A stretch of 45,275 nucleotides of DNA from Nanobdellota archaeon (lineage in GTDB: Archaea > Nanobdellota > Nanobdellia > SCGC-AAA011-G17 > GW2011-AR17): contig DUKS01000029.1 of assembly GCA_013329215.1 (NCBI GenBank), positions 426 to 45,700 of the forward strand, given 5' to 3'. Every line of letters starts with the position of its first letter. The stretch's first letter is position 1. The translations under genes were made by a program, and so were the position numbers. The notes beneath the pieces were generated by a model that saw nothing but the letters and a program-made list of their open reading frames with translations, ran no database searches and was not told the origin of the DNA. Shown here piece by piece: positions 1 through 44,159 of this stretch.

Positions 1-320
1 TAAAAGGGTTCGTGAGCTGGGTTAAGAACGTCGTGAGACAGTTTGTATGATATCTACTGGAGATGTAAATGGTCTGAGGGGAAGGATCGCGTAGTACGAG
101 AGGAACCGCGGACCGTGGCCACTGGTCCATCGGTTGTCCGACAGGGCAGGCCGAGCAGCTACGCCACAAGCCATAAATCCTGAAAGCATCTAAGGATGAA
201 AGGCGCCTCAAAAAGAGACCAAGAGTGCCTGAAGAACACAGGCTTGATAGGACTGGAGTGTAAGCACGAAGCTTCGGCGACGTGTTCAGCTCGCAGTTAC
301 TAAACTCTCGTTTTGATCTA
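1..320 (+). rRNA. rrl: 23S rRNA, 3' terminal part (runs off window start)
   Basis: Contains GTGAGCTGGGTT..GAACGTCGTGAGACAG (domain V), the sarcin-ricin loop AGTACGAGAGGAAC (~93-106), TGAAAGCATCTAAG and TTGATAGG..GGAGTGTAAGC. The 3' end is approximate. Confidence 0.95.
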
Positions 321-502
321 GACTGCTTTGCCTATGCATGGCATTCCTTTTTTTACTAATTCTTATGCCATTCATGGGAACAGCGTGAGCTCTATTCGTA
401 GAAGGCGGAGCTCCGCTGTGAACTCTCTTACTCTTATGTGTTTCTTTGCACTGCTTTGCCTGCTCAGATACTTATTTAAGCGGATTTCGGCATTAAGGGA
501 TA

Positions 503-1693
503 ATGCTATTCAAAAAAGGCGAGCTGAAAGAATTGTGGCCCTTCTATTTATATTACTTGATTTTCGGGCTTTCATCCCTGATAATGCCTTTCATGATAAT
601 TTACTTCAGGGACCTGAATTTTTCATTCCTGCAAATTGCAATAATAATTTCAGGGTTCAGCATAGGGCAGTTTTTGTTTGAAGTGCCAACAGGTGCTTTT
701 GCAGATGGATTGAGCAGGAAAGTCTCGGTAATTATCGGCTTTCTGATGAATGCATTTGCAATCTTATTATTCCCATTGTTTGACAGCCCCTACGCCTTAT
801 TTGCGCTTTGGACATTTTCAGGGATAGGAATGAGCTTTATTAGCGGAGCAGAAGAAGCATGGGTTGTTGACAATCTTCATAAGGCAAAAAAGAAAGAGCT
901 GCAGCAGGAATATTTTATCAAAGCCGCAAGCATTGCTGCATTTGGGGCAATATTTGCTCCCCTGCTCGGCGCGCTTTTTGTCAAATCACATCCAATTAAG
1001 TGGCTTTGGCTTATTTTCGGGGCAGGATTTTTGATAAATGCAATAATCCTGTCTGTTTTTGCAAAGGAGCTTTACAAGCCGAAACGCGTCAGCTTTTTGA
1101 AAAGCCTTAAAGAGACGTTTAAGAACGGTGCAAAGGGGATAAAGTTTACATTTAGTCATAAGGTTATTCTGCTGCTGGTGTTAGGGGGGGCTTTTGCTAT
1201 TTTTATGGAATTTGCATCTGACGGCTGGCAGCCTCTTTTGGTTAATTTGTCAATGCCGAAATACGGGCTGGGCATTATGTTTTCTGTTGTGGCTGCTGTT
1301 TCAATGGTAGTGCCTTTTTTGTCAAGGCTTTTGCTTAGATTTAAGATAAAGAATGTGATAGCAATTACTATTTTATTAAATATGATTTTATTATTTTCAC
1401 TGATATTCCTATCCCCTCCAATGTTCATGGTTGCAGCTATAATCTTCGTATTTAACAATGGGATTTGGTATTTGAATAACCCGCTTTTGCAATCTTATCT
1501 TCATAAATTTATTCCTACAAAAATAAGGGCAACAGTTATTTCTACGAAAAGTATGTTCAATAAGCTGGTTATAATCTTAGGTTCGCTTGCAGCAGGCGTA
1601 TTGATGGACTATTTTGGTCCGCAAAAGGTAATTGCCTTTGGCGGCTTCTTTGGCATTTTTGCAATATGGTGCTATCTTAAGATAAAGGACTGA
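503..1693 (+). CDS. MFS transporter
   Basis: 396 aa with ~12 hydrophobic segments. MFS motif-A-like 'EVPTGAFADGLSRK' and the typical 'SGAEEAWVVD' and 'IPTKIRATVIS' segments. Confidence 0.9.
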   Translation: MLFKKGELKELWPFYLYYLIFGLSSLIMPFMIIYFRDLNFSFLQIAIIISGFSIGQFLFEVPTGAFADGLSRKVSVIIGFLMNAFAILLFPLFDSPYALFALWTFSGIGMSFISGAEEAWVVDNLHKAKKKELQQEYFIKAASIAAFGAIFAPLLGALFVKSHPIKWLWLIFGAGFLINAIILSVFAKELYKPKRVSFLKSLKETFKNGAKGIKFTFSHKVILLLVLGGAFAIFMEFASDGWQPLLVNLSMPKYGLGIMFSVVAAVSMVVPFLSRLLLRFKIKNVIAITILLNMILLFSLIFLSPPMFMVAAIIFVFNNGIWYLNNPLLQSYLHKFIPTKIRATVISTKSMFNKLVIILGSLAAGVLMDYFGPQKVIAFGGFFGIFAIWCYLKIKD

Positions 1694-1771
1694 TTCACGC
1701 CGGCAGGCTGGCTTTCTTATCGGCTTTTCTTCACAAACGCTTATATATTACGAAATCATACTATTTGATTT

Positions 1772-2572
1772 ATGACTCCCAAAACCCTTTTGGCGCTTTT
1801 GGCGTCTTCTGCTGTTCCTGCTTTGCCTTATGATGCTTATGCTGATGAAACAGCTGAAGCACCGATATGCGAAAGCCCGAAGGAAACAGAAATTGGCGCA
1901 AATGCCGGCTATGCAATGCTCAACGGGGAGTTCGGGAATACTGACGGAGCGCAGGTTAGGATTGGCGGCAATACATCGCTTTACACTTTTGGTAACGGGC
2001 AGCTGGTGCTTGACAGCAGTTTTATAACTGATTATTTTGGCTATGAAGGCAATGGCGTCCAAAAAGATTCCCTTACAGATGCTTACGCGCTTGTGATGTA
2101 CAACGGCTTTGAAGGCTACAGCGTTGGCGGCGGGATTAACCTTTTTTTCTTTGACGGCTCAGGTATGTACGCCTCTGGCCAGCCCATGGAGTTGACTGAT
2201 TATGCGATAGGCCCATCGCTTCGCGGCACAATCATTGCAGACCCTGTTAAGCTGGTTCTTGACTATTCGCTTGGCTTTGGCCAGTTGGGCAGCAACAGGG
2301 CTGACCTGGATTTCCTTTTAAAGAACAGGCTCGGGATAAACCTGGGCATTGGGTATGAAGGGTTTTCAGCTGATGTTTACACTGACCTTATCTTTAATTA
2401 TATGCCTTACAGCGAAGATTCCTCTTTTGAGCTTAAGTATGGCCTGCGCGTAGGATACGGGTTCATTGATTTCATGGCTGCCAATGCTTTTTACGAGCAT
2501 GCGGAATTTTACGGTATTGAGGCGAGGGACAGCGCAGATGCAGTTGGCGGCGGGTTCTCGCTGTTTTTCTGA
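1772..2572 (+). CDS. Secreted protein with outer-membrane beta-barrel-like pattern
   Basis: Signal-peptide-like N-terminus, ~12 amphipathic Gly/aromatic-rich strands, C-terminal ...GGGFSLFF. TATA-like TTATATAT at 1741-1748. Confidence 0.6.
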   Translation: MTPKTLLALLASSAVPALPYDAYADETAEAPICESPKETEIGANAGYAMLNGEFGNTDGAQVRIGGNTSLYTFGNGQLVLDSSFITDYFGYEGNGVQKDSLTDAYALVMYNGFEGYSVGGGINLFFFDGSGMYASGQPMELTDYAIGPSLRGTIIADPVKLVLDYSLGFGQLGSNRADLDFLLKNRLGINLGIGYEGFSADVYTDLIFNYMPYSEDSSFELKYGLRVGYGFIDFMAANAFYEHAEFYGIEARDSADAVGGGFSLFF

Positions 2573-2712
2573 TATTGCCTATATTATCTATTCTCACGTA
2601 GCAAAAATGCGAAAGCTTTATAAAGTAAGGGCAAATCAGGCAATACAAGGCATTGCCACTAATGTTCCAGGCCTCTCTTCGCCTGGCTCGAGAGGCATAC
2701 GGGGGTTGTAAC

Positions 2713-3948
2713 ATGAAACGAATAGTACTGATATTGGTCTTACCGATAGTGTTTTTTATAATGCTGAATGCTGTTTTTGCAGCTGATTATTCTATTGACA
2801 AGGTTAAAATCAACGGCATGGAAGCGGGCTCTGAACAGATTGCCCTGCAGATTGGAAGCACTGTGCAGGTTGATGTTGTTGTTGAAGGGCTGGGAGCAAA
2901 AAAAGACGTCAAGGCAAAGGCATGGATTGGCGGCTATGAATATGAGGATATCATAGCTGAAACAGAACTGTTTGAAGTCAGGAGCGGAATAACTTACAGG
3001 AAAGAGCTTTCGCTTGAGCTTCCGAGGGACATGGAAGTTACTGAAAATCACACTTATGCGCTTCACGTTGAAGTCAGGGACAGAAACAATTACATTGAAA
3101 GGACATTCACTGTTTTTCTTGAGCCGAAAAGGCACGATGTGAACATACAGGATGTTATTGTCAGGCCGTCAACAATGACAGAGGCAGGCAAGACAATAGG
3201 GGTGCAGGCAAGGATTGAGAATTTCGGCGAAAAGACAGAGAAGAACATAAAAGTGGAAGTGTTTTTGCCGCAGTTTGGCGCTTCTTCAAGCACTTACATT
3301 GACTCGCTTGACCCGTATGAAGGCGAAGACACAACAGAAAGCACAAGCTTCATGATGCTTACAATACCTTCTGACCTGCCGACAGGGGATTACCAGCTTA
3401 AGGTCAAGGCAACTTATGCTTCAGGCCACAGCGAGGTTACTGCAACAAGGAACATTTATGTCAAGGGAAAGGATGCCGATGAAACATTTGCAGAAGATCT
3501 TGCAAGGGAATCAATAGCGTCTATCACATTAAAGAAACAGCTTTTGGTTGGCCAGATTTCGCAGTTCAAGGTTGCTGTTGCAAACATAGGCAGCGCAAAG
3601 AAAACATATTCAGTTGACATACCCAATCTTTCATGGGCAACATTTGACATCAGCCCTGCAAAGCTCGAGCTTTCGCCAGGGGATGCAAGTGAGTTTGTTG
3701 TGCGGGTTCTTCCGTCTGTTGTGGGCGTGCAGCAGGTAACAGTGAAGGTTAAGGAAGGCAGTTCAATAATCAAGGAAGATTCAGTCGGGCTTGAGGTTGT
3801 AAAGCCTGAAGAGCAAAGCAAGACAATGGAAAAGCTGAATACAGCACTGAAAGGCGTGAACGGAAAAGTCATACTGCTGGTGCTTTTGGGTGTTTTGGTG
3901 CTTGCGCTCTTAATAGCATTCATAGCAGGGACGAGACCGAAGTATTAG
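2713..3948 (+). CDS. Cell-surface protein with CARDB/Ig-like domains and C-terminal TM anchor
   Basis: Signal peptide MKRIVLILVLP...VFA, beta-rich repeats (e.g. VQARIENFGEKTEKNIKVEV), C-terminal hydrophobic helix. Start moved to ATG 2713. Confidence 0.75.
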   Translation: MKRIVLILVLPIVFFIMLNAVFAADYSIDKVKINGMEAGSEQIALQIGSTVQVDVVVEGLGAKKDVKAKAWIGGYEYEDIIAETELFEVRSGITYRKELSLELPRDMEVTENHTYALHVEVRDRNNYIERTFTVFLEPKRHDVNIQDVIVRPSTMTEAGKTIGVQARIENFGEKTEKNIKVEVFLPQFGASSSTYIDSLDPYEGEDTTESTSFMMLTIPSDLPTGDYQLKVKATYASGHSEVTATRNIYVKGKDADETFAEDLARESIASITLKKQLLVGQISQFKVAVANIGSAKKTYSVDIPNLSWATFDISPAKLELSPGDASEFVVRVLPSVVGVQQVTVKVKEGSSIIKEDSVGLEVVKPEEQSKTMEKLNTALKGVNGKVILLVLLGVLVLALLIAFIAGTRPKY

Positions 3949-4050
3949 CGTGGCAAGTAGCTAGTGGCTATTGGCCGGCAATAGATAGTAAGGAGGCAAA
4001 GCAGAACTTTTGTTCTGGGCCTCCTTTCGTAAACTCAGGAGGCAAACAAA

Positions 4051-4497
4051 ATGAGAACACTTGCAGAATTAGCGTGTATCGCTTCTTTGGGATTAGCCGC
4101 TGGATGCGGCGATGACACTTATATTCCTGCTGATGCAGACACAACAGAGGAAACAGCAGCGGGCTTCACGTTTGAAGGAAAAGCAGCCTACTGCGTAAGC
4201 CACAGGGATGAGATGTCAACATGCGTTCATCCATATGCTGACCTGCTGATATGGGGAGGCAATGGCGTCTCAAAGGCATGGGCCAATGCTTACAGGGATG
4301 GCGAGGCTCCTGTAAAAATTTCTGAAAGGGCAGCAGACGGCAATCCAATGCATTATGCGATTGACACTGACCTCTGTATACGGGGCAGCGTGAATGGCGT
4401 AGGCATCACTGCAGAAGACAGCGAAGGCGGGCAGGGCGCATACCCAGTTGAAGAAGTTGATTGCGAAACACTTGACGCAATGATTGCAGGGCCGTAA
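4051..4497 (+). CDS. Acidic lipoprotein-like secreted protein
   Basis: Lipobox-like LAAG/C followed by GDD; SD AGGAGG at 4037-4042. Confidence 0.6.
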   Translation: MRTLAELACIASLGLAAGCGDDTYIPADADTTEETAAGFTFEGKAAYCVSHRDEMSTCVHPYADLLIWGGNGVSKAWANAYRDGEAPVKISERAADGNPMHYAIDTDLCIRGSVNGVGITAEDSEGGQGAYPVEEVDCETLDAMIAGP

Positions 4498-4506
4498 TCT
4501 TCTATT

Positions 4507-5511
4507 TTATCTGTTTTTCAACAGTTCAAGAAATAATTCCAGGTCATTCTTCTCGAGCGTAAAACCGCCTGCTTTCTCATGGCCGCCGCCGATGAATGTC
4601 TTTATGTCTTTTTCAAATCCCTCTAGGAATTTGCCTGCGTCAAAATCCAAATTATCATGCACGCGCATGCTGCCAATCACTAAATGCTCTACAATGTTCA
4701 TCACAATAATAGGCCTTTCTGGCTTTATCAGCTTTGCAGCAAGAACACCCTGTATGTTCCTTGGCTCTGCAATGATGGCGCAGTCCACTTTGCCTATCTG
4801 CTTTACCTCAGGCTGCTTGCTGTAGTCGTTCTTAAGCATCGCCTTGTACTGCTGCAGCTGTACAGCCAGCGGATGCCTTATGTTTGTGAATGGCTCATAT
4901 GAATCAATACTTTTCAGCAGCTCAAGCGGTATGTCGCCGCTCCAGTTTATCCTTTTGCCTGTGTTCAGCGCGGACACGTGCCTTTCTATTTCAAGAAAAT
5001 ATCCTTCATTGAAATGGCTTTCCTGCTTCTGCATCATGTCAGGCATTGCTTCCATCGCATTGCTTAGCAGCGGCTCCGGTATCGCGTCCCTCTTGCCCCC
5101 ATCGCCAAAATAGCCGACCAGCGTGAGGAACAAAACATACGGGTCTTTGCTGTTTTGCATCAGGCGGTTATAAATCAGTGTTGTTGTTGACACTTCTTTT
5201 TCATCATGTATCACAATGTCAAACTTTTCTGCATTGCTGAACGGGTGGTGGTCGATTAATGCAATCACCCTGCCCTTGCCTGCAATATCCGGAGACGGCT
5301 GGATGTCAGTGCATATTACCACTTCAGCCTCTTTCTCAATATCTTGATCTTCTATAAGAAAAGGCATTCCTTTTGTCTTTGTCCTTACTGTTAATGCATG
5401 CGGCTTCAGTAGATGGTATATTAACGCTGCAGAGCACACGCCGTCGGCGTCCCAGTGCGAGCAAATCTGCACATGCCTGCCTTTGCAGACCTCAATCAAA
5501 GTGTGTTGCAT
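4507..5511 (-). CDS. DHH/DHHA1 phosphoesterase (RecJ-like family)
   Basis: Motifs HWDADG, IDHH and C-terminal GGGHEKAGG. Confidence 0.9.
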   Translation of the reverse strand: MQHTLIEVCKGRHVQICSHWDADGVCSAALIYHLLKPHALTVRTKTKGMPFLIEDQDIEKEAEVVICTDIQPSPDIAGKGRVIALIDHHPFSNAEKFDIVIHDEKEVSTTTLIYNRLMQNSKDPYVLFLTLVGYFGDGGKRDAIPEPLLSNAMEAMPDMMQKQESHFNEGYFLEIERHVSALNTGKRINWSGDIPLELLKSIDSYEPFTNIRHPLAVQLQQYKAMLKNDYSKQPEVKQIGKVDCAIIAEPRNIQGVLAAKLIKPERPIIVMNIVEHLVIGSMRVHDNLDFDAGKFLEGFEKDIKTFIGGGHEKAGGFTLEKNDLELFLELLKNR

Positions 5512-5626
5512 GCGATAAAATAGATAGTGATGATATATAAAAGTATAGGAAGGCCGGCCCCCGGCAGAAAAGAAACAACTCTCTTCTTCTAAAACACTTA
5601 AGCCATTGAAGCTTAGCGGAGCTCGG

Positions 5627-36665: not shown

Positions 36666-39278
36666 ATGCGTAAACTATTACTGTTCGCATTTGCCGCATT
36701 GCTCGTTTTCGCTTTGCCTGCATCTGCAACGGTTCTGGAAACAAGCCTTGCTGTGCGTGACAAGCTTCCTGCAGAGACGCTTGCTGACATTCCGGGCTTT
36801 ATTTCAAGGATGGAAACTGTCGGCTCAAAGGTTTCTGTTGATCCTGTTAATGGGTATTACACTGCCTATAATGAGGATGACTTAAAGGCAATATTTGGGG
36901 ATGATGCTGTTTTAGTGCCCTCTCCGCCCGGGCTTCTGACCATAACCTACAAAAGAGGCGGGACTTACAAATTTTGGGGCATGCTTCACGGGCTTGTTGT
37001 TGCTGATTCCGCAAGAAAAGTGATTACAGTCACAAAAGGCGGGTTTATTTCAAGCGAGGATCTGAATGTGAATATTGCAGGAGATGAAATCCGGATAGAT
37101 GCGGATAATCCTGCAAGCGTTTTGTTTAAAATACCAAGCAAGGGCATATATTCACAGAACAATTATTTCATGGGCTGCTTGTTGAAACAAGAAGCAACGG
37201 AAGAAGGGTGCATGGCATGGCTTTGCGAGCAGGAGCCCTATTTTAGGGAATGCGCACAGGAAAACCCCCTCTTTGAGCCCATAGAAGGATGTGACGCTAA
37301 TCAAATGCAAAGGTACAGGAATTATCTTCAGAATGAAATTGACTGCAGGACTAGCGCTCTTGTCAAACCGCAGGAGGCGTATGCCAATCTCACAGGCCAC
37401 GGGTTCTTGTCTGAAAATGCATTTATTGCGGACTACAAAACAAAGGAACCGGAATCTTTCCTGTCCAAGGCAATGGAAGCAGATGCTAATTTTGCCTTTG
37501 TATCTGACCTGTACAATGTTAATATGAAAAGAAGCAGGAGACTCGGCTTTACAGCATCCGCTCCCACAGGCGGAAGCATAGATTCTAAAGGCATTAAATC
37601 CGATGAGCTGTTTAAGTATTCTGTTGGGGAGCATGGAGAGAAGGCTATTTCCGGGGACCGGCTTGCAGTATATCGGCCGAGAGGTATAATACTAAAAGCA
37701 GAAGACATTGAAAATACCCCACACTTTGATCCTATCGTAAGGATTTTTGAAGGCAGCATAAACGATGAGCAGGCATTTGAAATAATGCAGATAAAAATAG
37801 GGGCTGTTTTTTTTACCCCTTCGAGCACCGGACTTTACACGCAATGTACGGAAAACAAGCCGCCTTACGAAGGCATTTCCTGTTTCTTGAGCGAAGAAAG
37901 CGGCTTGAATTACAAATTGAAAATAAACAAGCCTGCGGCACATGAACAGCCTATTATGGAGATAAACACGGATGCCATTAGTTTTAATCCGGACAACCCT
38001 TTTGAACGCAAACAGACATATATTGAGATAGAGCCTTTTGACATAAATGATGATTTGAGCATAGTCAGGCTTGTAAACAATGCGGATGCTGAAATAGTAT
38101 TCACAGGCAAGGATATAAGAATACCGCCTGTTGGCAATGACTGGGCAGAATTAGGCGTAAGCTTTAAGGCAAGCATTTATCCGTTAAGCCTCCCTCCGCA
38201 GTGCGACCCGGGGATTTTCATCGGGGAAGAATGTGCTATACCAAAGCCGGTAGAGGTGTATGACACAATAGAATGCAAGCTGCCTGAAAGAAAATGCTAT
38301 TTAAATGGTGTGGAAGTGACGGGATTTATTGGCGGAAGCGTGCAAAGGACTAAATTTTGCCATGAGGATTCAGACTGCTATAACAACCAGAAATGCATAG
38401 AAGGAATGTGTGTGATGAAGGCAACGTGCAGTGCATTAAGCTTAAGCAGCGCGGATTCTGGGTTCCCAGCTATAACAACAGGCCCCAATAAGGCAGACGT
38501 GCTGTTCGCCTGCGATGGCTATCCTTCTGAAAGCGCTTGTATAGACGATGTAAAGAAGGCTATAGACAAGGACAGCAGATACAATGGAATATTTTCTGTG
38601 GAGCCGTTCAAGAGCAATTTACAAAGATTTACATTTCATACTGCGGCAGGGAGCGCTGCTCCTTCTTCTCGAAACTGGATGCGCGATTTTAGTGTCAGCC
38701 GCAGCCTTTCAGACCCTTCCTATGGCTTGACTTACACCATAAGATATTCTAATTCTTTTGTAAAACAATGCCCTGATTCAGATTATACCATAGTTTTATC
38801 CAAAAAAGAATTCCGCTCATTTAGTGAAATTGAACATTTTTTATCAACAAGTTTACGGAACGTAATCTTCGGTACATTAGGCGCAGGGGTTTACATGAGC
38901 TCTGCAGATGATAATAACTTCCCTCAGACTGCGTTGCATGAGTTCGGGCACCTATTTGGAGGCTTGCAGGACGAGTATTATGAGCCCGTCGCAGGAGCGT
39001 CAGGAGGTATAGGCAACCCAAACTGCATTTCAAAAGAGGAAATACTATTGCATTGGTCCCTTTGGCCTGATGTTCTCGCAGATGCGTTGCAGGGGAAATG
39101 GAAAGGCTGCGGGGGGCCTTGTGAATCTTCAAAATGCGCAAGCCTGCTTAGGCCTTCTGAAAATTCTGTTATGAATAATGAATATACCTGGCTGGAAAAT
39201 CGCAATGAGCCCGGATGGAAAGCATTCAACGAGCCGAGCGAGGCACAGATTATAGAGAAGCTGAATGAGTATTCGTGA
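36666..39278 (+). CDS. Large secreted protein with Cys-rich module and C-terminal M64-like zinc metallopeptidase
   Basis: Signal peptide; Cys module CHEDSDCYNNQKCIEGMC; 'FSVEPFKS'; HEFGHLFGGLQDEY; 'RPSENSVM'. Confidence 0.8.
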   Translation: MRKLLLFAFAALLVFALPASATVLETSLAVRDKLPAETLADIPGFISRMETVGSKVSVDPVNGYYTAYNEDDLKAIFGDDAVLVPSPPGLLTITYKRGGTYKFWGMLHGLVVADSARKVITVTKGGFISSEDLNVNIAGDEIRIDADNPASVLFKIPSKGIYSQNNYFMGCLLKQEATEEGCMAWLCEQEPYFRECAQENPLFEPIEGCDANQMQRYRNYLQNEIDCRTSALVKPQEAYANLTGHGFLSENAFIADYKTKEPESFLSKAMEADANFAFVSDLYNVNMKRSRRLGFTASAPTGGSIDSKGIKSDELFKYSVGEHGEKAISGDRLAVYRPRGIILKAEDIENTPHFDPIVRIFEGSINDEQAFEIMQIKIGAVFFTPSSTGLYTQCTENKPPYEGISCFLSEESGLNYKLKINKPAAHEQPIMEINTDAISFNPDNPFERKQTYIEIEPFDINDDLSIVRLVNNADAEIVFTGKDIRIPPVGNDWAELGVSFKASIYPLSLPPQCDPGIFIGEECAIPKPVEVYDTIECKLPERKCYLNGVEVTGFIGGSVQRTKFCHEDSDCYNNQKCIEGMCVMKATCSALSLSSADSGFPAITTGPNKADVLFACDGYPSESACIDDVKKAIDKDSRYNGIFSVEPFKSNLQRFTFHTAAGSAAPSSRNWMRDFSVSRSLSDPSYGLTYTIRYSNSFVKQCPDSDYTIVLSKKEFRSFSEIEHFLSTSLRNVIFGTLGAGVYMSSADDNNFPQTALHEFGHLFGGLQDEYYEPVAGASGGIGNPNCISKEEILLHWSLWPDVLADALQGKWKGCGGPCESSKCASLLRPSENSVMNNEYTWLENRNEPGWKAFNEPSEAQIIEKLNEYS

Positions 39279-42950: not shown

Positions 42951-44159
42951 CTATGCTGCCTTTGCAGTTATCTTGAGCTTGCCCTTGAAGATGCCTGCTT
43001 TTTTCTTTGGGGAAAATGCCCGCACCTTTATTTCTTTTCTCTCGCCGGGCTCAATTGCGATATTTGCGTCTTTCAGCGCAATCCATTCACCGTTAAAAGC
43101 TTCTATAAGGATATTGCTTTTATCACTCGCGGAAAAGCTTACTTTTACCATGTCAATGCCTGTGTTCCTTACATACAGCACGGACTCTTTGCTTTCCCCG
43201 GGGTTCAGCCTGCCAAAGCTTATGCTCTTTGTTTCAAGAACCGTTGCAATCCTGCTTACATACTCTATTTGCCTTGATTCTGTCGTGTTTGTTATTGAAT
43301 CAAACGCGGTTATTGTAAGGTTGTATGCCTTTCTTTCATCAGAAGGGGAAAACGCAAATCTGCCTGCAAACAAAACAGTTTCATTGCTTGCGTTTGCCCT
43401 GTTCATCATGATTTCCCTCCCGCCTATAAAGGCAGTAATGTTTGCAATGTCTTCAATGCCGTTTTCATCGCTGACAAGCGCTTCGATCCGCACTGTCTTG
43501 TTCCCCGCTATTACCTGTATGCCGTCTGCATCCATTTCGTCAGGCGTTATGTTTATGCTGGCGATTCTTGGCACCAGGTTCAGGGTCTCAAGCTCAAACT
43601 CAGCCTCATCTTTTTCCAAAGCAGTTTCAAACGCCCCTCCCCCCGGCGTTCCACCTTCTGCACTTTCTTCCCATCCCATTTCGCTTGTTCTTTCAAGGCT
43701 TTTGCCGTTGCCGTTGGCGCCGATTGAAGATGCATAGGAGAAAACATCGCTTTCATTCCCGTTTGTCAAATTCACAGTGCCTGCGCTGTTTGCCAATGAG
43801 ATTGAAACCTGCATTGCACTGAACCCGTCTGCCTCATCCCACACCCAGTCATTGTTTCCCCAGTATTTCTCAAACGAATCAGTGTCTGTGTCAGTTCCGT
43901 CTGTGAGCTCTTTTGCAATCACGAGATACTGCATTGGCCCCAGCGTGCCTTCCAGCTGCTTGTTGTTGGCAAGCCATTGGCTTAAGTCAATTGCTTCTTC
44001 TCCATGGTTGTAAACCTCAATCCATTCGCAGTCAGTGTCATCGCACTGGCTCGGGTTGTACATCACTTCAGTCAGGATTAGCCCGGCTGATGCAATCCTG
44101 CATGACGCGACCAATAACGATGCTGCCAGCATAAGCAGCCACGCCTTTTTGTGTCTCAT
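42951..44159 (-). CDS. Secreted lamin-tail-domain (LTD) plus Ig-like surface protein
   Basis: LILTEVMYNP...EWIEVYN...IDLSQW; GKSLER...GTPG. Confidence 0.85.
   Translation of the reverse strand: MRHKKAWLLMLAASLLVASCRIASAGLILTEVMYNPSQCDDTDCEWIEVYNHGEEAIDLSQWLANNKQLEGTLGPMQYLVIAKELTDGTDTDTDSFEKYWGNNDWVWDEADGFSAMQVSISLANSAGTVNLTNGNESDVFSYASSIGANGNGKSLERTSEMGWEESAEGGTPGGGAFETALEKDEAEFELETLNLVPRIASINITPDEMDADGIQVIAGNKTVRIEALVSDENGIEDIANITAFIGGREIMMNRANASNETVLFAGRFAFSPSDERKAYNLTITAFDSITNTTESRQIEYVSRIATVLETKSISFGRLNPGESKESVLYVRNTGIDMVKVSFSASDKSNILIEAFNGEWIALKDANIAIEPGERKEIKVRAFSPKKKAGIFKGKLKITAKAA

Follow-up and report, generated by a model that had tools for sequence, protein, structure and literature searches.

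A predicted 12-stranded outer-membrane-type beta-barrel protein native to a Nanoarchaeia genome without detectable Omp85

Results and Discussion

The 45,275-nucleotide stretch of DNA analyzed here (contig DUKS01000029.1 of a Nanobdellota archaeon; the whole stretch is referred to as the window) carries, at positions 1772-2572 of the + strand, an open reading frame (ORF) of 266 amino acids that is predicted to encode a 12-stranded beta-barrel of the outer-membrane type. A first-pass annotation, made from the letters alone, had proposed an outer-membrane-type barrel in an archaeal genome, and this is borne out by the predicted fold, by the archaeal 23S rRNA end on the same DNA and by the native character of the locus; the fold, the protein class and the native status of the gene are, taken jointly, very probable. 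That the barrel is embedded in a membrane is probable, and the full statement, of a native, monomeric, 12-stranded transmembrane barrel placed in the archaeon's own envelope independently of the beta-barrel assembly machinery (BAM), is given slightly less than an even chance. Barrels ending in a C-terminal beta-signal are regarded as characteristic of the outer membranes of bacteria, mitochondria and plastids, and their assembly by Omp85 proteins is, to our knowledge, considered universal. What sets the protein apart from known outer-membrane proteins (OMPs) is the archaeal carrier and the absence of Omp85.

Predicted fold and structural matches

The best AlphaFold2 (AF2) model of the protein, for which an alignment of seven sequences (A2) served as input, has a mean predicted local distance difference test score (pLDDT) of 77.2 and a predicted TM score (pTM) of 0.71. 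Most 10-residue blocks of the modelled barrel have pLDDT values of 73-93, with three blocks that include loops at 59-62, and the five models range through 77.2, 73.7, 65.0, 63.7 and 27.8. The barrel domain of the best model (m0e7159857c96) covers residues 39-266 (window 1886-2569, + strand) and is a simple up-and-down meander of 12 long antiparallel strands, assigned by DSSP to residues 39-52, 55-73, 76-91, 95-113, 116-134, 137-156, 159-174, 180-195, 198-210, 217-232, 235-247 and 252-265, and it is preceded by a helix at residues 2-13, within an N-terminus (residues 1-31) of pLDDT < 50. Each of the 12 strand segments named in the first-pass annotation falls within one of these DSSP strands, and the predicted fold is a barrel, neither a soluble sandwich nor a propeller.

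Structural comparison places this model among OMPs. The best 50 rows of a Foldseek search against the Protein Data Bank (PDB) are all outer-membrane barrels or designed or modelled forms of them, and the best geometric fits are 12-stranded autotransporter translocators (TM 0.49-0.54). The VIA structure search, which is independent of Foldseek, likewise returned outer-membrane barrels exclusively as its top matches, led by NanC (Z 19.5, root-mean-square deviation (rmsd) 2.8 Å, 190 of 204 residues) and followed by VhGalP (Z 18.2), a COG4313 channel (18.1), KdgM (18.1) and Tsx (17.4), with autotransporter barrels at Z 15.6-16.9; the highest-ranked solved soluble barrel, Rv2717c, appears at rank 43 with Z 10.0. 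The even number of antiparallel next-neighbor strands is thus predicted to close into a barrel, as closed 12-strand barrels superpose on the model at Z 16-19.5. The ESM Atlas contains the identical sequence with its own model (pTM 0.70), obtained by a method independent of AF2, and the nearest clusters there, whether by language-model features (0.96-0.97; porin OmpG, Phage_OMP and 'outer membrane insertion signal' proteins) or by structure (TM 0.67-0.76), are all bacterial OMPs. Oligomeric beta-pore-forming toxins, which build their barrel from one or two hairpins of each of several soluble monomers, differ from this protein, in which one chain supplies all 12 strands.

Strand faces, C-terminal strand and composition

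Splitting the strand residues by parity, with the register fixed from the query alone and then applied to its relatives, gives two faces, of which A is hydrophobic (L15 F11 A10 Y10 V8; 7 of 97 residues charged) and B is polar (G22 D10 S9 Y7 N6; 20 of 98 charged). The transfer of these faces to relatives is a stronger test than shuffling of the query, and in the sequences compared the contrast persists or sharpens, the charged fraction of faces A and B being 9% and 23% in a subfamily of 274 amino acids, 7% and 37% in the 279-amino-acid protein of genome G017 (20% identity), and 2% and 32% in the 445-amino-acid protein of genome G011 (15% identity). The face assignment made on the query therefore holds in relatives of 15-25% identity. 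The amphipathic strands with an aromatic girdle that had been read from the sequence are recovered here as a hydrophobic face, taken by analogy to point outwards to lipid, a polar face towards the lumen, and aromatic residues at the strand ends.

In the bacterial beta-signal, a terminal aromatic residue is preceded by Gly at -5 and by hydrophobic residues at both -4 and -2. Judged against this layout, the family carries a C-terminal beta-signal-like motif: the last strand of the query (2546-2569, + strand) has G261 (-5), F262 (-4), L264 (-2) and F266 (0) in the family alignment. Throughout the 14 aligned members, position -5 is G, position -4 is hydrophobic and the final residue is F or Y, while position -2 is hydrophobic in 11 of the 14. 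The terminal Phe of the query sits on the hydrophobic face. The available portions of two papers (PMC7383365, PMC8292188) describe the beta-signal in general terms, as a conserved motif in the final strand that is rich in aromatic residues and includes a conserved Gly.

The composition of the protein is OMP-like. Its Gly, Tyr and Phe content of 0.286 ranks first of 1261 crude genes (proteome 0.151 +/- 0.032), and its Lys and Arg content of 0.045 is one third of the proteome mean of 0.133. Two paralogous Gly/Ser/Thr-rich proteins of 254 and 277 amino acids, encoded elsewhere in the same genome (G000) at G000:C44:8166-8927 (-) and G000:C17:3440-4270 (-), rank second and eleventh by the same Gly, Tyr and Phe measure; each has one N-terminal membrane helix, and they are possibly surface fiber or pilin-like proteins.

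Leader, linker and start of the protein

The coding sequence (1772-2572, + strand) is complete, running from an ATG to a stop codon at 2570-2572, and orthologues occur in four of the four other species of the genus. The start codon is unambiguous, as the stop-to-stop frame is only 267 amino acids long and its only start is the annotated ATG. Both the signal-like leader and the acidic linker proposed in the first-pass annotation can be read by eye. Residues 1-24 (1772-1843, + strand) have the n-h-c layout of a Sec signal peptide, with Lys4 in the opening MTPK and a hydrophobic core that spans 5-18; the A-Y-A of positions 22-24, with D-E directly after it, would place a putative signal peptidase I site before Asp25; the orthologues also show, by inspection, A-x-A ahead of an acidic residue. 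The linker, residues 25-38 (1844-1885, + strand), holds the sole cysteine (C33) and a KETE motif leading into strand 1, and E34, K37, E38, T39 and E40 are invariant in the four closest sequences. The approximately 228 residues beyond it are very rich in Gly, Phe and Tyr and end in ...GGGFSLFF, with F266 as the terminal Phe noted previously.

Cys33 (1868-1870) and K-E-T-E (1880-1891) are kept in the closest orthologues and absent from the subfamily of 274 amino acids, and a disulphide to a partner may be one possibility. Lipidation of the barrel was considered on account of LLAAC or LLAGC in the signal peptide of some orthologues, and was rejected because the query and four other members have no lipobox cysteine.

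A native archaeal gene

The 3' end of an archaeal 23S rRNA occupies positions 1-323 (+) of the window (RF02540, 288 bits, E 1.3e-87), 1.4 kb upstream of the barrel gene, and contigs join this rRNA end to a gene of the major facilitator superfamily (MFS) and onward; the same MFS gene lies upstream of the barrel gene in genome G003 (91% identity). The window is free of N, and the genome bin, of 1.416 Mb in 67 contigs, is 95.3% complete and 0.6% contaminated. Four sequencing runs were found, all of DNA and all groundwater metagenomes from two samples of one study. Contigs of the possible source run cover 1523-5600 of the window in a single piece, and those of an independent sample of the same study cover 1414-2272 and 2259-5600, with 0 differences in either case. 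Each of the two gene junctions is thus bridged, and a chimeric bacterial assembly, a concern raised when the barrel was first noted, is rejected.

An archaeal-type promoter lies at 1733-1749 (+), comprising a purine-rich stretch like the transcription factor B recognition element (BRE) and a TATA box, TTATATAT, at 1741-1748, 23 nt before the ATG. In the orthologues of loci L002, L003 (gene at 1501), L004 and L006, boxes of the form AAAcG-TTATATA or AAAAG-TTTATAAA precede the ATG by 23-35 nt. With the spacing expected between an archaeal TATA box and the transcription start, this arrangement suggests that the mRNA is leaderless or has a very short leader. Codon usage is typical of the genome (synonymous z -0.29; z +0.31 for G+C at third codon positions), and the ratio of nonsynonymous to synonymous substitution (dN/dS) is 0.14-0.24 in four pairs with unsaturated dS (0.60-1.35), values that indicate a gene under purifying selection. 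Horizontal acquisition, which had been offered as one explanation, is unsupported in the form of a recent transfer, as codon usage is normal and the locus is conserved in several genera.

Sequence relatives, distribution and architectures

The query itself reaches 11.2 bits against PF13505 (OMP_b-brl). Its 279-amino-acid relative in G017 (L006:1222-2058), for which the protein collection carries a precomputed PF13505 assignment, exceeds the cut-off of 28.7 bits for this model with a score of 33.7 (E 5e-8). PF13505 is found at E <= 1 in five of the 14 aligned members, and all 11 of the families listed for these members are outer-membrane families. A phmmer search of the query against 1.84 billion representatives gave five proteins at E <= 0.001, three of which are true relatives; the matches to P0008 (1225 amino acids, 7 stretches) and P0009 (654 amino acids, 5 stretches) were rejected as repeat-composition matches. 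Word-indexed searches gave three relatives besides the query, and seven proteins with a profile. There is no bacterial sequence bridge for the barrel family, as a search with the G017 relative returned only itself. By these searches the family is nearly isolated in sequence, and the protein is best classed as a highly divergent offshoot within the generic bacterial OMP barrel superfamily. Since a relative matches the Pfam OMP_b-brl model, an ancient bacterial origin of the barrel is likely on the basis of sequence.

The distribution of the family, counted with the profile of a 14-sequence alignment (A3), is confined almost wholly to one Nanoarchaeia family among the DPANN archaea surveyed. It occurs in 14 of the 37 genomes of its GTDB family, in one of 203 genomes of other families of the order, and, in a sample of 401 high-quality genomes drawn from across the phylum, in none of the 386 that lie outside its GTDB family. 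The single match outside the family (G200) is weak (E 4.1e-4) and covers profile positions 2-87, mainly the signal-peptide end. Sequence identity falls to 46% within the genus, and a locus search with alignment A1 gave one locus, L019.

Three architectures were found. Stand-alone barrels of 220-300 amino acids occur up to three in tandem in G001. Genomes G001, G002 and G006 have a barrel gene directly beside, or overlapping, the gene of a lipobox HExxH protein of 494 to at least 554 amino acids; such pairs were observed at L019:7304-9796 (with a 4 nt gap), L005:3-2244 and L015:2-2373. On sequence features, the HExxH protein is a putative lipoprotein metalloprotease, and the pair looks like a conserved barrel-lipoprotein operon. 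The third architecture consists of fusions of 445-521 amino acids in which an N-terminal domain of approximately 200-290 amino acids and a Pro-rich linker precede the barrel, a layout that appears autotransporter-like, and these members (L007:1252-2589 (-), L016:598-2163 (+) and P0010-P0013) adjoin large repeat-rich surface proteins. The N-terminal domain matched no known family and, in the 445-amino-acid form, had no usable match in the ESM Atlas.

Envelope context

A second barrel candidate was found in the same genome at G000:C43:81-1238 (+), equivalent to L020:81-1238, encoding 386 amino acids with a signal peptide and the ending ...FGLGWKVGEFM. Its model is a larger barrel (pLDDT 72.6, pTM 0.70), with VIA matches to FadL (Z 18.1, 292 residues aligned), FadL-like subunits of Bacteroidota BAM complexes (18.1), TodX (17.7) and PorV (16.7), and the family occurs in seven of the 37 genomes of the taxonomic family, the own genome included. 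Against Pfam there was no support beyond E 0.05. The modelled structure suggests a FadL/TodX/PorV-like barrel unrelated to the first barrel family, and a channel for hydrophobic compounds would, as a speculation, be of interest in a lineage thought to scavenge lipids.

The genome also encodes the enzymes of bacterial-type lipoprotein maturation, namely a full-length Lgt at G000:C9:11608-12336 (-) (PF01790, 246.9 bits, model positions 1-240 of 240) and LspA at G000:C52:29418-29795 (+) (PF01252, 105.1 bits). Lgt exceeds the Pfam cut-off in 219 of the 240 genomes of the order, and in 103 of its 107 high-quality genomes, while control searches for Lgt and LspA matched ten of ten bacterial and none of four archaeal genomes. 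According to the portion available of a 2025 paper (PMC12462473), no archaeal homologues of Lgt or Lsp have been identified so far, and AliA/AliB are proposed instead, a picture to which the present DPANN order appears to form an exception.

Proposed mechanism and membrane location

In the mechanism proposed here, the barrel gene would be transcribed from its own archaeal BRE/TATA-like promoter, and the protein would be exported by Sec and cleaved after Ala24. Independently of Omp85/BAM, and either spontaneously or via some as yet unrecognized helper, it would then fold into a lipid layer exterior to the cytoplasmic membrane, such that the hydrophobic, aromatic-edged face contacts lipid and the face rich in Gly, Asp, Ser and Asn lines a narrow, net acidic lumen, as expected of a small solute channel. 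The preferred site would be in the envelope of the archaeon itself, within an outer lipid layer, where the barrel would form part of an envelope toolkit together with the S-layer-like protein encoded next to it, Lgt/Lsp-matured lipoproteins and the second, FadL-like barrel.

This site is favored because the genome holds two different barrels of resident type and a lipoprotein machinery, and the family includes barrel-lipoprotein operons. The available part of PMC4243693 reports double membranes in a few archaea that live close to other cells, including the ARMAN group of DPANN, so that an archaeal outer layer has a precedent, and according to the part available of PMC7383365, OMPs fold into bilayers in vitro without other proteins or energy. 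A further extension, in which the Nanoarchaeia family is effectively diderm, with an outer lipid layer that contains NanC-like and FadL-like barrels, Lgt/LspA lipoproteins and an Omp85-free assembly, is doubtful.

Several results weigh against a membrane barrel in the archaeon's own envelope. The query matched none of the families in Pfam/NCBIfam at E <= 1, and the profile of alignment A3 found nothing relevant among PDB sequences (best E 0.42, to designed repeat proteins). The AF2 model was built on only seven sequences, and one of the five models collapsed (pLDDT 27.8). The shuffle test on the query alone is just moderate, its hydrophobic/polar alternation being matched by 54 of 2000 within-strand shuffles, and the outward-pointing face, the width of the belt and the size of the pore are all drawn by analogy. 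No Omp85 (PF01103) was matched in the own genome, which is 95% complete, nor was any over the cut-off in the 37 genomes of the family, so that assembly into an outer membrane by Omp85/BamA finds no counterpart at this threshold; POTRA, Skp/OmpH, LptD, LolA and TamB likewise had no credible match in the own genome. A weak PF13505 match on C19 was rejected as a paralogue of the S-layer-like protein, and a weak POTRA match on C60 as a cytoplasmic nuclease-like protein. The family is, moreover, patchy (six of 17 genera of its GTDB family), which is unexpected for an essential part of a lineage-wide outer membrane, and the S-layer-like neighbor has its own C-terminal anchor, as in the classic single-membrane archaeal envelope. 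The case for the own envelope is therefore weakened by the lack of visible insertion and lipid-transport machinery, by the patchiness of the family and by the single-membrane fashion in which the S-layer-like protein is anchored.

The main rival to this location, considered unlikely, is insertion into the membrane of a host cell, the archaeon being presumably host-dependent. A protein of the same fold and export route would be released, or presented at the contact site, and would enter the host membrane as a small channel or anchoring point for the uptake of metabolites or lipids. Genomes across the order are small (0.4-1.7 Mb), as is typical of host-dependent DPANN archaea. A host-interaction gene would fit the patchiness of the family and its fast divergence (46% identity in the genus), and the arrangement of some relatives, with a 200-290-amino-acid N-terminal domain, a Pro-rich linker and repeat-rich surface neighbors, is adhesin-like. 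The presence of two barrel families and of barrel-lipoprotein operons, on the other hand, looks more like a resident envelope set. Known secreted beta-pore-formers assemble a barrel from several subunits, while in all known cases the monomeric barrels of NanC type (12 strands) and FadL type (14 strands) are resident channels and not secreted pore-formers. As no assembly machine of its own was detected and OMPs self-insert in vitro (PMC7383365, in the part available), spontaneous insertion would be no less plausible for a foreign bilayer than for the archaeon's own.

A barrel outside any membrane, whether water-soluble or associated with the S-layer, and serving as a scaffold or as a ligand- or lipid-binding protein in a pseudo-periplasm or in the S-layer lattice, is distinctly improbable, though it would account for the conserved adjacency to the S-layer-like gene and would be compatible with the lack of a Pfam match to the query, the moderate alternation test and the outward face assigned by analogy. 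The likeness to OMPs would then be geometric only. The faces of the distant relatives do not agree with this, with 2-9% of residues charged on face A and 19-37%, together with much Gly, on face B, and 12 long strands could probably not bury a hydrophobic face inside. The Lys and Arg content of 4.5%, compared with a proteome mean of 13.3%, the relative above the OMP_b-brl threshold, and a best soluble barrel (Rv2717c) at just Z 10.0 and rank 43 also speak for a membrane protein.

Only a slight chance is given to the barrel being inserted from outside into the archaeon's cytoplasmic membrane, in a single-membrane cell. Such a location would need neither an extra membrane nor lipid transport, and the protein leaves Sec right beside that membrane, but an open barrel pore would be expected to dissipate the ion gradient there, a FadL-like second barrel would make little sense, and we know of no resident beta-barrel of the cytoplasmic membrane. 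Lastly, an artefact (contaminating bacterial DNA or a chimeric join) or a relic (a gene acquired by recent transfer and now decaying without function) is hardly credible even for a protein type that is otherwise bacterial in a 67-contig metagenome bin, and is already refuted as far as sequence data allow, because the contigs of two samples (0 differences across both junctions, no N), the archaeal 23S rRNA end, the archaeal promoter box, the native codon usage, the recurrence of the locus and its neighbors in four of four sister species, the dN/dS of 0.14-0.24 and the bin contamination of 0.6% all agree.

Comparison with known systems and significance

The KdgM/NanC channels (2wjr NanC, 4pr7 KdgM and 8xua VhGalP) are the best structural matches to the barrel, with Z 19.5, 18.1 and 18.2, respectively, and an rmsd of 2.5-3.2 Å over 168-199 residues, and they have in common with it the strand number, a barrel of approximately 210-240 residues, short turns and a monomeric state. 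Sequence identity is, however, 11-14%, and no member of alignment A3 lists that Pfam family at E <= 1, so the likeness is one of fold and not of sequence family. The barrel differs further in its archaeal carrier without Omp85 and in its putative lumen face, which is rich in Gly and Asp. With PF13505 (OMP_b-brl), it shares the aromatic-ending C-terminal motif and the alternating strand pattern, but that model describes smaller barrels (175 positions), and the carriers of the barrel family are archaea.

Type Va autotransporters (Hbp 3aeh, NalP 1uyn/1uyo, BrkA 3qq2, EspP 2qom and EstA 3kvn) also have 12-stranded barrels of similar size, and the relatives of 445-521 amino acids resemble them in having an N-terminal domain and a linker ahead of the barrel. 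The query, in contrast, has neither the passenger nor the linker helix through the barrel that characterize this type; only 14 residues separate strand 1 from the putative signal-peptide site, and the model shows no pore-filling helix. PF03797 is matched by only one of the 14 family members (E 0.071).

The pore protein of Ignicoccus is presumably helical. Ignicoccus, ARMAN, SM1/Altiarchaeum and Methanomassiliicoccus are two-membrane archaea that interact closely with other organisms (PMC4243693); the available part of that paper reports no beta-barrel OMP for any of them. A search of full-text literature, with most subscription journals outside its reach and a prior report therefore possible, found no description of such barrels in Nanoarchaeia, and the only near mention was that of a possible distant PopA relative in Altiarchaeales, in the part available of PMC12228718.

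If the barrel is membrane-embedded, there would be either an undescribed envelope layer, or barrels put into the membrane of another cell, or an installation in vivo that is free of BAM, and each of these outcomes bears on how DPANN archaea feed on their hosts and on the evolution of outer membranes and their proteins. Should the diderm reading be true, an archaeal outer membrane equipped with bacterial-style beta-barrels would be known for the first time, and the barrels would be installed by a natural BAM-independent insertion pathway. Because the mature protein is small (approximately 240 residues) and monomeric, the barrel is directly testable by refolding and electrophysiology.

Neighboring genes and further observations

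The neighbors described in the first-pass annotation as an archaeal-type surface protein and a lipobox protein were both found downstream of the barrel gene. The first, at 2713-3948 (+), is an S-layer-like surface protein of 411 amino acids with a signal peptide, a CARDB domain (PF07705, 29.7 bits, cut-off 22.7) and a C-terminal transmembrane anchor, and it reaches 66 bits against NF033506 ('putative S-layer protein'), which is under the cut-off of 110. The same S-layer-like gene lies beside the barrel gene in five of 11 other genomes (G004, G001/L019, G052, G017 and G011), spanning genera g1, g14 and g8, where most of the loci compared reach only approximately 1.5 kb either side of the barrel gene. 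A complex prediction of barrel residues 26-266 with residues 24-385 of the S-layer-like protein gave a score of 0.00, which counts neither for nor against binding. A second S-layer-like copy, of 447 amino acids and 29% identical to that of the window, is located at G000:C19:6924-8267 (-), equivalent to L021:532-1875, and has the same signal peptide, CARDB-like core and C-terminal anchor.

The second neighbor, at 4051-4497 (+), is a lipobox protein (LAAGC) of 148 amino acids that matches no known family. A homologue follows the S-layer-like gene in the same order in L019 (12475-12720), and this lipobox gene belongs to the same envelope gene cluster as the barrel gene. Upstream of the barrel cluster in L019, at a place corresponding to the rRNA-end region of the window, an ORF for a LAGLIDADG homing endonuclease was observed (L019:3326-3787, +), which is probably encoded by an rRNA intron. 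Elsewhere in the window, positions 36666-39278 (+) hold an ORF of 870 amino acids with no Pfam match at E <= 1e-5, and positions 42951-44159 (-) encode a protein of 402 amino acids with a lamin-tail domain (PF00932, 47 bits).

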